Of a stretch of 12,219 nt of DNA, positions 4,067-6,546 are shown piece after piece (the stretch's first letter is position 1; every line of letters starts with the position of its first letter). A program made the translations under genes and the position numbers. The DNA comes from a virus (Duplodnaviria; Heunggongvirae; Uroviricota; Caudoviricetes), in IMG/VR virus record IMGVR_UViG_2545824708_000010, positions 1 through 12,219 of that record; one strand, 5' to 3'. Under the pieces are notes generated by a model. The model searched no databases, had not been told where the DNA came from, and saw only the letters and a list, made by a program, of their open reading frames with translations.

Positions 4067-4116
4067 TTTCCTTAACTAATAAGAAGTTATGCGCATCAAC
4101 TTATGCGCGTTGTATT

Positions 4117-4160
4117 CCCGCATTTCGGCGGGAATGAGGACCATGACTGTTAAAGAGCGG
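4117..4160 (-). promoter_or_regulatory. nutR (boxA plus boxB) between cro and cII
   Basis: On the minus strand: boxA CGCTCTTTAACA (plus 4149-4160), then a boxB hairpin UCCCGC-CGAAAU-GCGGGA (plus 4117-4132). The same boxA/boxB recurs on the plus strand downstream of PL. Confidence 0.6.
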
Positions 4161-4466: not shown

Positions 4467-5183
4467 ATGGAAAATAAAAAATCACTGACGACAGAACAGC
4501 TGGAAGACGCTAAGCGGCTTAAGGCTTTGTATGAGTCAAAAAAGAAAGAATTGGGAATAACCCAATACTCAATCGCTGATGAACTGGGTATCACCCAAGG
4601 AGCGGTAGGGCATTATCTTAATGGCAGAAATGCGCTAAACGTTGAGGTTGCATCTGGTTTTGCACGATTGTTGCAAGTCTCAATTGCTGATTTTAGCCAG
4701 TCAATTGCTGCCAAGGTTGCAGAACAGGCAGAAAGCCTTAAGAGCGATGCCAACGTAAGGTATGCAGGGGAATACAGAGCAGGAAAGAGGTATCCGGTGT
4801 TAAGCAGTATCCAGGCTGGCTCGTGGTGTGAAGCATGCGAACCATACACCATTAAAGACATAGATGTTTGGCTTGAGTCTGACGCGCATATTCAAGGTAA
4901 TGCGTTCTGGCTTAAAGTGGAAGGTGATTCAATGACGGCACCGGTTGGGTTAAGCATTCCAGAGGGAACATTCGTTCTTTTCGATACCGGAAGGGAGGCG
5001 ATCAACGGCAGCTTGGTCATAGCAAAACTTTCTGACTCTAACGAAGCAACATTCAAGAAGCTGATAATCGACGGCGGAAATAAATACCTCAAGGGACTTA
5101 ATCCTGCATGGCCTCTCGTGCCAATCAATGGAAACTGCAAGATTATAGGCGTTGCAATTGAGACAAAACTAAGGCTGGTTTGA
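4467..5183 (+). CDS. cI: CI-type prophage repressor (HTH DNA-binding domain plus S24 LexA-like autopeptidase domain)
   Basis: N-terminus LTTEQLEDAKRLKALYESKKKELGITQYSIADELGITQGAVGHYLNG resembles lambda CI. The C-terminal domain has Ala-Gly (YAGEY), the GDSM serine and the FKKL lysine, and resembles the recalled P22 C2 C-terminus (FWL.V.GDSMTAP.GLSIPEG...NEATFKKL...NGNCKIIGV). Confidence 0.93.
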   Translation: MENKKSLTTEQLEDAKRLKALYESKKKELGITQYSIADELGITQGAVGHYLNGRNALNVEVASGFARLLQVSIADFSQSIAAKVAEQAESLKSDANVRYAGEYRAGKRYPVLSSIQAGSWCEACEPYTIKDIDVWLESDAHIQGNAFWLKVEGDSMTAPVGLSIPEGTFVLFDTGREAINGSLVIAKLSDSNEATFKKLIIDGGNKYLKGLNPAWPLVPINGNCKIIGVAIETKLRLV

Positions 5184-5200
5184 TCACGCAAGGGGCGATT

Positions 5201-5569
5201 ATGGTTGGAACCGCTATAGCAAGCTTTTTTGGGATGTTGGCAATCTCGACAATTTACGGCTTAGCGCATGCTTTTATTGCGAAATCTCTATCAGAAAAAA
5301 TAAGCCAGGCTTGGGCGCATAGATCAGCTCGTTTCATGATTCTAGTGATCATAGCAATACAAGGGATATCTGCATTTATCCTCTATGGTTCAAGCTTATA
5401 CCTGTTGTATCAAGGCGCGACATTTACGCCTTACACCAGTGATTACGGAACTCTATACGATGGTAGTGAAGACATCTCTATGGCTTGGATTGTCTTTGGT
5501 TTATCTATGGCCGTGTCTGTTGTAGCAGATATCATTAAGGTAATTCTCGTCTTAACCTTCGCTGACTAA
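5201..5569 (+). CDS. Small multi-pass membrane protein cotranscribed with cI (rex/sie position)
   Basis: ATG at 5201 with an AGGGG ribosome-binding site, 18 bp after the cI stop. 122 aa with 3-4 hydrophobic segments (AIASFFGMLAISTIYGLAHAFIA, FMILVIIAIQGISAFILYG, MAWIVFGLSMAVSVVADIIKVILVLTF). The ORF-track start at 5180 is a TTG overlapping the cI stop. Confidence 0.6.
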   Translation: MVGTAIASFFGMLAISTIYGLAHAFIAKSLSEKISQAWAHRSARFMILVIIAIQGISAFILYGSSLYLLYQGATFTPYTSDYGTLYDGSEDISMAWIVFGLSMAVSVVADIIKVILVLTFAD

Positions 5570-5655: not shown

Positions 5656-5745
5656 AATATCCTTTGTATTCATTTGCTTATCATTATTTCATCAAAAATA
5701 AATACCTTGGGTATTTACACAATAAAATACCTACAGTATTCTTTA
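5656..5745 (+). promoter_or_regulatory. OL operators and PL promoter
   Basis: Operators with the same half-sites as OR: AATAC-CTTGG-GTATT (5701-5715), AATAC-CTACA-GTATT (5727-5741), and a degenerate AATAT-CCTTT-GTATT (about 5657-5671). PL candidate: -35 TTTACA (5714-5719), 17 bp, -10 TATTCT (5737-5742). Confidence 0.65.
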
Positions 5746-5788
5746 GCCATCAGCAGGACGCTGGAAGCCAAACGGAACAGATTGGCAG

Positions 5789-5828
5789 GCTCTTTAACAT
5801 TGATGGGATTGTCCCGCCGAAATGCGGG
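5789..5828 (+). promoter_or_regulatory. nutL (boxA plus boxB)
   Basis: GCTCTTTAACA (5789-5799), 13 nt, then CCCGCCGAAATGCGGG (5813-5828). This is the same boxA/boxB RNA sequence as the nutR site on the opposite strand, about 45 nt downstream of the PL -10. Confidence 0.65.
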
Positions 5829-6273
5829 AACTGAGTTTAACCAAACAGGAGGTGCCGTAATGGTGCACTAACGCGGTTAGACCGCAGCCGAAAGGAAATG
5901 CAGCAGTAATGATGCTGCCCTGAGTCGCCATTGAGCGAGCCTGCTTAGCATCGGGTTAGGGTCAATATATTAAAAGTAGCTCCGGTAAAGCAGCGCGAAT
6001 GCCAGACGCGCACCGGTTATCAGCGGCGATGAAGCGGCAGAGACTCAAGGGCATGAGCGCGCTCACTGCGAGAGTGTGAGTCAAAGAGTAGTTGGCTTTG
6101 GGATTGGATGAATGAGCAGGCTGATGCTCGACCAATGTATAAACAGCGCTCATGGCAAGCAGTAACCAATCTGCGCCTCAAGACAGCGTCACTGGTAGTG
6201 CGGGCGCTCTAACCAGTAAGCCGGAATTCAGCACCGGCCATCCAATCACCAAAGTCAATCATCGGAGGTCAAC

Positions 6274-6546
6274 ATGACAGTAGTCATTACATATCTGGCT
6301 GACGATAACGCCAGAAATCGCCGCAGAGCACGCAGACAGGCTCAACGTGAACAGGCAATGCAAGAACAGCGACTGGCGCGAAAAATTGCGCTAAAGCTCT
6401 CTGGTTGCGTCAGAGCAGACAAAGCAGCATCACTCGGAAGCCTTCGCTGCAAGAAGGCAGATGAATGCAGTGGAAGTATTTGCCTGCCAAACGTAGCCAT
6501 TTACGCGGCAGGCTACCGGAAATCAAAACAACTGACGGCGAGGTAA
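6274..6546 (+). CDS. N: N-like transcription antitermination protein
   Basis: 90 aa. First gene downstream of PL/nutL, with a GGAGG ribosome-binding site. N-terminal arginine-rich motif NARNRRRARRQAQREQA, as in lambdoid N proteins. Confidence 0.75.
   Translation: MTVVITYLADDNARNRRRARRQAQREQAMQEQRLARKIALKLSGCVRADKAASLGSLRCKKADECSGSICLPNVAIYAAGYRKSKQLTAR

Follow-up and report, generated by a model that had tools for sequence, protein, structure and literature searches.

Two accessory structured-RNA modules account for the long N leader of a lambdoid prophage

The leader between nutL and the N gene in the 12,219-nt stretch of Caudoviricetes DNA analysed here (hereafter the window) is real and unusually long, and its extra length is made up of two inserted modules of large families that a first-pass annotation of the same DNA had not recognised. 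The region is a lambda-type N leader, consisting of pL, nutL, a long RNase III-type stem, a Shine-Dalgarno sequence (SD) and N, to which two accessory structured-RNA modules, here called A and B, have been added. Both modules move among phages by recombination, and neither matches a catalogued RNA family.

Results

Layout and composite origin of the leader

The plus strand of the window corresponds to the leftward direction of lambda, and pL, nutL and N were assigned by anchoring on the annotation of HK620. A cI-like repressor gene (4467-5183, plus strand) is followed by the pL promoter (5714-5742, plus strand; -35 TTTACA, -10 TATTCT), which was located by a consensus scan and aligns co-linearly with the pL annotated in HK620 (98.7% identity). 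The interval from cI to pL holds a small membrane ORF (5180-5569, plus strand) of 129 aa with hydrophobic segments, which takes the rex position; its counterpart in HK620 is the unknown gene hkaS. The plus-strand nutL (5789-5829) is the annotated nutL of HK620, with an exact boxA (GCTCTTTAACA, 5789-5799) and a boxB hairpin, TCCCGC-CGAAAT-GCGGGA (5812-5829). Both boxes recur identically in nutR (4110-4158, minus strand), and nutL and nutR hold the only exact boxA matches in the window.

All further elements of the leader lie on the plus strand. Module A (5832-6081), a 250-nt insertion relative to HK620 that was delimited by BLAST junctions and the covariance model R1, carries an SD (AGGAGG, 5847-5852), a start-stop mini-ORF (ATG GTG CAC TAA, 5860-5871) and a structured RNA core of ~208 nt (5873-6080). 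Beyond it lies a long stem, by likeness a lambda-type RNase III site in the boxC region, whose 5′ strand (6091-6108) and 3′ strand (6241-6259, with a bulged A at 6248) enclose the apical domain of module B (6109-6240). The SD of N (GGAGG, 6264-6268) and its start codon (6274-6276) complete the leader. N is of the HK620/21 type (ORF 6274-6546, 90 aa), matches phrog_271 (N-like) and shares 99.3% DNA identity with HK620 N; identity to HK620 is thus 98.7-99.3% across pL/nutL and across N.

From the end of boxB (5829) to the AUG of N (6274), the gap measures 444 nt, versus 158 nt in lambda and 107 nt in HK620, whose nutL and N are the same; this bears out the long leader described at first pass. 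The excess over HK620 is fully explained by two differences (107 + 250 + 87 = 444): window positions 5832-6081 (250 nt) are absent from HK620, and positions 6103-6248 (146 nt) stand in place of 59 nt. According to BLAST the remainder is co-linear, with window 5800-5831 equal to HK620 (locus L001) 1651-1682 and window 6082-6102 equal to L001 1683-1703, so that module A is inserted cleanly, directly after boxB. Each difference was found separately in other phages, which argues for a composite origin: mEp213 has the 250-nt piece of module A with the remaining leader and stem of the HK620 type, and IME10, Gally and 611R6 match window 6082-6273 at 100% identity and lack the 250-nt module A. The whole leader folds better than its shuffles (z = -3.2).

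The early-left operon of mEp213 (locus L002; 394-726, 1879-2151) contains two different N genes. Half a boxB, module A and the long stem come before the second, HK620-type gene, as if this phage had acquired a further nutL-N cassette by recombination.

Structure of module A

The core of module A comprises nine helices: P1 (5873-6/5882-5), P2 (5887-9/5894-6), P3 (5900-5/5913-8), P4 (5919-21/5959-61), P5 (5925-8/5935-8), P6 (5939-43/5952-6), P7 (5982-5/6013-6 and 5993-7/6007-11), P8 (6044-7/6054-7) and P9 (6062-6/6076-80). A pseudoknot joins the P6 loop (5947-9) to 5979-81, and an alternative closing helix can form between 5883-5 and 6059-61. Pairs were counted in a model-based alignment (A3) and in an alignment made by MAFFT only (A2), and mutual information places the proposed pairs at the top. 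In the MAFFT-only alignment the structure is paired in 96.1% of cells, compared with 28-35% when the partners are slid, and 30 of 47 pairs are compensatory; its covariation score of 0.397 (0.142 in shuffles) was reached by 0 of 500 shuffles. The 82-sequence alignment agrees, with 94.6% paired and compensatory changes in 33 of 51 pairs, and it supports the pseudoknot, which is absent from the model, with 38 AU, 20 CG and 7 UA pairs. P3 is the best-supported helix: it is the GCAGCA-GTAATGA-TGCTGC hairpin picked out by eye in the first-pass annotation (5900-5918), and all six of its pairs show compensatory changes. The folding energy of module A alone is unremarkable (z = -0.06), and its structure therefore rests on covariation, not on folding energy.

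Several stretches are invariant and unpaired (CCCYGAGUC, GGUNAGGGUUAAU and CUCAAGGGCAUGAGCGCG), and GCC 6001-6003 and GGC 6050-6052, whose bases are invariant, are a candidate kissing pair. P1 is weak, with three solid pairs and 87.7% of cells paired, and its 3′ strand overlaps the three-pair closing helix with 6059-6061, which would close the whole domain and is compatible in 98.8% of cells, absorbing 37 one-sided changes (30 G-U, 7 U-G). The two helices thus share nucleotides and are each compatible with almost all members, with no more than one to three double-compensatory cases each. Other pairings were considered and set aside. AGC 6023-6025 as partner of GCU 5979-5981 is paired in only 18%, and the pseudoknot with the P6 loop is preferred; for a long-range CGCAG/CUGCG pairing predicted from nine sequences, the CUCCG-type 3′ hairpin loop does not compensate; and a terminator-like site on the minus strand (5918-5900) is helix P3 read in reverse.

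Could the inserts instead be non-functional mosaic junk, selfish DNA repeats or a protein gene on the minus strand, as annotated in RothC and some E. coli? The module does occur as an indel, hypothetical CDSs lie on the opposite strand in RothC and many members have long open minus-strand frames. However, the compensatory changes lie on the plus strand with many G-U pairs, which makes the structure specific to the transcribed strand; no period-3 signal was detected on either strand (lag-3 autocorrelation was not raised); element lengths are evenly spread modulo 3 (23, 31 and 28), as a conserved frame would not allow; and the minus-strand frames of the window contain stops. We therefore hold this explanation to be highly improbable. 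Alignment across related phages, in short, returned conserved structure by covariation and no coding signal, and we regard the structural and family claims for the modules as strong.

Annotated CDSs labelled 'hypothetical protein' overlie modules A or B in RothC (locus L005 2416-2752, minus strand), in ON470589.1 (over window 6082-6273) and in several RefSeq E. coli records, and one public annotation over the modules reads 'repetitive proline-rich cell wall protein 2'. Because covariation is present and a coding signal is absent, these are probably false gene calls.

A positioned start-stop site and its possible role

Immediately upstream of P1, A, T and G occupy positions -13, -12 and -11 from the first P1 nucleotide in 64, 57 and 55 of 82 sequences, respectively. 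Most of the 82 also have a purine-rich GGAG/GAGG block at -25 to -21 and an A-rich spacer, and the spacing from SD to ATG, counted from the motif start, peaks at 11-12 nt. Among the 86 unique module A sequences with an ATG that could be anchored 9-13 nt before P1, 79 stop after one (12), two (16) or three (51) codons. The codons themselves are highly varied (e.g., ATG TAA, ATG TGA, ATG CTG TAG and ATG AAG CAA TAA, with ATG GTG CAC TAA in the window). A fixed ATG position combined with free codons points to selection on a ribosome start site kept a set distance away from the fold, not on a peptide, so that the strong SD and three-codon ORF flagged at first pass are conserved as a positioned start-stop device but not as the micropeptide that was also considered.

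In the nutL-associated subfamily, GUUUAACC (window 5836-5843) is able to pair with GGUUAGAC (5875-5882), and CUAAC 5868-5872, which overlaps the stop codon, with GUUAG 5876-5880. These alternative pairings are subfamily-specific; they would surround the mini-ORF and P1 or form at their expense.

From the overlap of P1 with the closing helix and the spacing of the AUG, we infer that module A is a ribosome-gated leader RNA that acts in cis as a block on its own transcript, a reading offered tentatively, with confidence just short of even. With the A of the AUG as +1, P1 starts at +14, which is the 3′ edge of an initiating ribosome; one sitting on the AUG would reach as far as about +15 and occupy the 5′ strand of the weak P1. 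P1 would then be unable to form, its CCGC 3′ strand would be free for the closing helix, and pairing with GCG 6059-6061 may lock the compact fold. Ribosome and folded module A together would make a bulky block near the 5′ end that could protect or insulate the RNA of a long antiterminated operon; possible threats include RNase E scanning that depends on the 5′ end, Rho loading and, in the pL context, repression by the N/Nus loop reaching downstream. Given the few double-compensatory cases, the switch between P1 and the closing helix is a proposal. Three further observations weigh against the block. An RNA of 208 nt with many invariant unpaired bases points to something more elaborate than a simple roadblock, and those bases indicate a specific partner; module A is dispensable, since HK620, IME10 and Gally have the same nutL and N without it; and some copies lie in mid-operon, after lysis genes, and not at a 5′ end.

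The module A family

Distant BLAST matches to the module A core share 69-90% identity, are nearly always unannotated and come from phages of Hafnia, Klebsiella, Edwardsiella, Providencia and E. coli. A 24-nt pattern from the 3′ part matched at least 119 IMG/VR contigs, from which came 107 unique sequences that form 81 clusters at less than 90% identity, as well as 57 stretches in species-representative genomes, which are all Enterobacterales except for two odd records and range from Kluyvera and Citrobacter to Xenorhabdus, Proteus, Pectobacterium and Edwardsiella. The pattern is present in 118 of 5426 complete E. coli genomes, where it is usually unannotated and in a few cases lies beneath a 'hypothetical protein' CDS. 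The window reaches 231.5 bits (E = 7e-65) against model R1, for which 41 sequences were used, and the model found no match in 0.9 Mb of unrelated phage loci.

Two records labelled as Firmicutes, a Vagococcus sp. (L166) and a Bacillales MAG (L182), also match module A and stand out from the Enterobacterales pattern. The latter additionally has a module B with a lambdoid-type stem, and both are likely contamination or mis-binning.

Genomic context of module A and alternative roles

For each module A locus the nearest same-strand ORF of at least 100 aa was recorded, which upstream gave 100 unique proteins. Of these, 19 are S24/LexA-type repressors, 18 have a Q-antiterminator Pfam match, a few are Rz/LysC lysis proteins and four carry an Acb2/Tad1 hairpin domain. 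The nearest downstream ORFs include 11 N-like proteins, 12 holins and 10 members of phrog_571 (an unknown family), with others scattered. Module A is thus observed mainly in the leaders of two long antiterminated operons, the early-left operon (repressor/nutL to N) and the late operon (Q/tR′ to lysis). Flanking coding sequence is co-directional with the module in most loci, and runs opposite on both sides in 1 of 101. In late-operon copies an intrinsic terminator, presumably tR′, often ends ~10 nt before the SD, and early-left copies follow boxB hairpins of at least four different sequences. An intrinsic terminator also comes 7-50 nt after the module in 13 of 86 copies, at ~20 nt or less in 10 of them.

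Four downstream neighbours are TerB-like. Together with the Acb2/Tad1 proteins, which are anti-CBASS and anti-Thoeris sponges, they suggest that module A is often found in hot spots of accessory or anti-defence genes, and the existence of close relatives without it marks it as an accessory element. A riboswitch or gene-specific cis-regulator would be expected beside a constant gene; the downstream ORFs are spread over 83 PHROG families, with no constant gene class or spacing (~-7 to ~800 nt to the next ORF). A fixed linkage between the two modules was likewise discarded, as they are adjacent, in either order, in only 12 of 184 module A loci.

One early-left leader with both modules is that of the Edwardsiella phage EPP-1 (L009 1815-2891), which is non-coding over ~1 kb and has module B followed directly by module A. 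No recognisable N gene precedes rdgC, and the leader is a candidate for RNA-only control of an early operon.

The same observations bear on a role in trans. Module A could be the gene of a stable RNA, an 'RNA moron' that is co-transcribed with the operon and trimmed out, e.g., by RNase III at the neighbouring stem, with a bound ribosome shielding its 5′ end, the P9 hairpin its 3′ end, and the invariant loops binding or sponging some factor of host or phage, e.g., to counter defences or to take over the host. The complex fold with its many invariant unpaired bases speaks for this, as do the clean cassette boundaries that end exactly at P9, the patchy, accessory distribution, the mutually unrelated downstream genes, the four Acb2/Tad1-like anti-defence proteins upstream and the terminators directly after the module in 13 of 86 copies, an arrangement more readily expected of a discrete RNA or an antiterminator than of a ribosome-gated block. 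Yet a promoter of its own is not evident, a trans-acting RNA would need neither the bias towards operon leaders nor the fixed distance from AUG to P1, and tRNA genes rarely adjoin the module (few of ~60 loci; the association is weak). We consider such a gene rather unlikely, if still the chief rival of the ribosome-gated block. A small RNA, another option raised in the first-pass annotation, is plausible on sequence grounds for modules A and B, because each is a conserved structured RNA family.

As an antiterminator, module A might work like put of HK022, an RNA-only modifier of RNA polymerase that suppresses downstream pausing or termination. The promoter-proximal site of module A in long operons that contain terminators, the terminators directly downstream of 15% of copies and the occurrence of early-left leaders with no recognisable N gene (EPP-1, with its ~1-kb leader and modules B and A) are consistent with this. 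On the other hand, module A resembles neither putL nor putR in sequence or structure, its covariance model is negative in HK022, most copies reside in phages that already have N or Q, and module A is three times the size of put, which needs no ribosome site. A put-like role therefore appears doubtful, and clearly improbable. The ribosome-gated block remains the reading that we prefer for module A.

The long stem and module B

The minimum free energy fold of 6082-6300 (z = -4.9) contains a stem of ~18-20 bp, formed by 6091-~6110 with ~6239-6259, directly before the SD of N. In HK620 the stem is retained but its upper part differs in sequence, and lambda has a GGCUUUGGGGUGUGUG / CACACACC(A)CCAAAGC stem at the same place (z = -4.05). 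The stem base, GGCUUUGGG / CC(A)CCAAAG with its bulged A, is common to the window and lambda, and across the module B family the closing stem shows compensatory changes at 7 of 7 pairs tested (e.g., UA 21, GC 15, AU 3 and CG 1 at one pair), although it played no part in selecting the sequences. Both features expected of a lambda-type RNase III site were thus found, namely a stem between nutL and the SD of N and its compensatory conservation. The N leader stem of lambda is reportedly an RNase III site, cleavage of which is said, in the work of Wilson et al. of 2002, to relieve repression of N translation by N/Nus. Judged by sequence, the stem at 6091-6259 is homologous to it, and cleavage is predicted. 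The shared base and bulged A make the RNase III-type site suggested at first pass right in kind, but its place is the long stem 6091-6108/6241-6259 and not the short hairpins listed there. Cleavage at 6091-6259 would part a fragment with nutL and module A from the N mRNA. The lambda leader has extensive structure, and translation of N is repressed from nutL by the N/Nus complex (PMC5725501).

Module B would be the decorated top of this processing stem. From 5′ to 3′ it consists of the 5′ strand of the closing stem, UGAAUG, hairpin 1 (loop AGGCUGAU), a variable insert of 28-300 nt, hairpin 2 (loop AGAUCAGCA; AAUUCAGCA in the window), CA and the 3′ strand of the closing stem; in the window, hairpin 1 occupies 6114-7/6126-9, the insert 6130-6217 and hairpin 2 6220-4/6234-8. 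The loops GCUGA and UCAGC are complementary and almost invariant, and the 100% pairing of hairpin 2 is biased because pairing was a selection criterion. The pattern TGAATGMGCAGGCTGATGC matched at least 120 IMG/VR contigs. The copy in the window shares 97.7% identity over 132 nt with that of ep3, an unrelated phage, and 90% with that of BUCT554.

The first-pass annotation had read the 3′ part of this domain as a possible second nut-like element, and an ORF of 34 codons (6108-6212) within it as a possible micropeptide. The GCCGG-AATTCAGCA-CCGGC hairpin at 6220-6238 is indeed real and conserved, as hairpin 2 of module B, GCGCTCTAAC at 6204 before it does resemble boxA, and the ORF starts with ATG. 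Yet GCGCTCTAAC has two mismatches, and the window contains 18 such matches with 12.1 expected by chance; the boxA-like GCGCTCTAA sits in the variable insert; and GCCGG-AAUUCAGCA-CCGGC is unlike the boxB hairpin common to nutL and nutR. Among family members the frame of the ORF stays open for anything between 7 and more than 60 codons, and the codons of the upstream mini-ORF, the other candidate peptide, are unconserved. A second nut site, a micropeptide or both can thus be given very little credence.

Module B frequently lies within same-strand tRNA gene arrays or directly beside them, and same-strand tRNA genes are next to the module or close by in 11 of 60 loci. In at least two copies (L273, L288) the variable insert contains a tRNA-like T-arm sequence. 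These associations suggest a cassette for RNA processing or cargo display whose use extends beyond the N leader. Of 107 copies, 28 are preceded, at a distance of at most 40 nt, by a boxA-like GCTCT[TC]. Loci with both module B and tRNA gene arrays are L192 (4689-4707, minus strand; 6455-6473, plus strand), L207, L233, L242, L243, L197 and L217, and one contig has two module B copies on opposite strands.

Discussion

The immunity, N and Q control regions of lambdoid phages are among the best-studied regulatory DNA in biology, yet two widespread and conserved RNAs have gone unannotated there. Module A couples a translation start-stop site to a complex fold at a fixed distance, and we found no description of such a bacterial or phage RNA family. 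Beyond the block on its own transcript, it may represent, in temperate phages of Enterobacterales, an undescribed ribosome-coupled RNA class, in which a start-stop site 13 nt before a pseudoknotted fold of ~208 nt would let ribosome or 30S subunit and RNA form one functional particle that heads early and late operon transcripts, and module B may represent another new class, in which kissing hairpins are the scaffold for a variable cargo presented within an RNase III stem; we consider this pair of proposals possible, with our judgement leaning somewhat against it. Such a particle might, for example, travel with the nutL/N-modified polymerase once RNase III has cut, or module A might regulate elongation, decay or host defence as RNA alone.

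The position of module A is where phages, Shiga-toxin prophages included, make their antitermination decisions. If it controls the fate of transcripts or recruits ribosomes to the transcription complex, it would add a new layer to the control of early and late phage genes, and it would also constitute a compact, portable RNA part. Both families are diverse enough for structure probing, cryo-EM and genetics, and HK620 and IME10 versus the prophage of the window and mEp213 provide natural controls without and with module A.

Comparison with known systems

At gathering score, Rfam 15 gave no match in the window, and at E values up to 10 it gave a single spurious match in 5700-6300 (12.6 bits against a cut-off of 105). 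ARAGORN detected no tRNA or tmRNA in the window, and in the literature we found no description of a lambdoid leader RNA motif, start-stop ORF, minigene or put-like element of this kind. The prophage sRNAs Pas, STnc100, AgvB and AsxR (2026 prophage sRNA survey preprint), which belong to Rfam families or other loci, do not match either. GOLLD and ROOL resemble the modules as conserved, complex, prophage-borne RNAs with strong covariation whose function is not known, but they come from Gram-positive hosts, are much larger and tRNA-associated and have no ribosome site.

Like module A, HK022 put is a structured RNA just 3′ of a lambdoid early promoter that adjoins no dedicated gene. However, put has ~70 nt and two stems with no SD or start-stop ORF, whereas module A has 208 nt and a pseudoknot and coexists with N or Q; putL and putR, read from the genome, are unlike either module, and identity with put was rejected, R1 being negative in the HK022 loci. 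With the lambda bar minigenes and bacterial start-stop or mini uORFs, module A shares a strong SD, an AUG with 0-2 sense codons before the stop and a pL-type transcript. The bar minigenes are defined by AUG-AUA-stop and by toxicity in pth mutants, whereas module A conserves the distance from AUG to fold and leaves the codons free; with AUG GUG CAC UAA in the window and varying codons and lengths in the family, its mini-ORF is not a bar minigene.

Module B recalls the logic of rrn leaders, in which boxA, boxC and an RNase III stem surround a stable RNA: its closing stem joins the flanks around a cargo, part of the copies have a boxA-like GCTCT[TC] upstream, and copies frequently lie within tRNA gene arrays. 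It differs in that the cargo contains no rRNA and is a variable 28-300 nt between two conserved hairpins with complementary loops, and processing is proposed by analogy. The RNase III hairpin (boxC stem) of the lambda N leader shares with the window its position directly 5′ of the SD, a long near-perfect stem and the stem base with its bulged A; the upper stem and top have been replaced, by a 128-nt two-hairpin module in the window, a 59-nt top in HK620 and another sequence in lambda.
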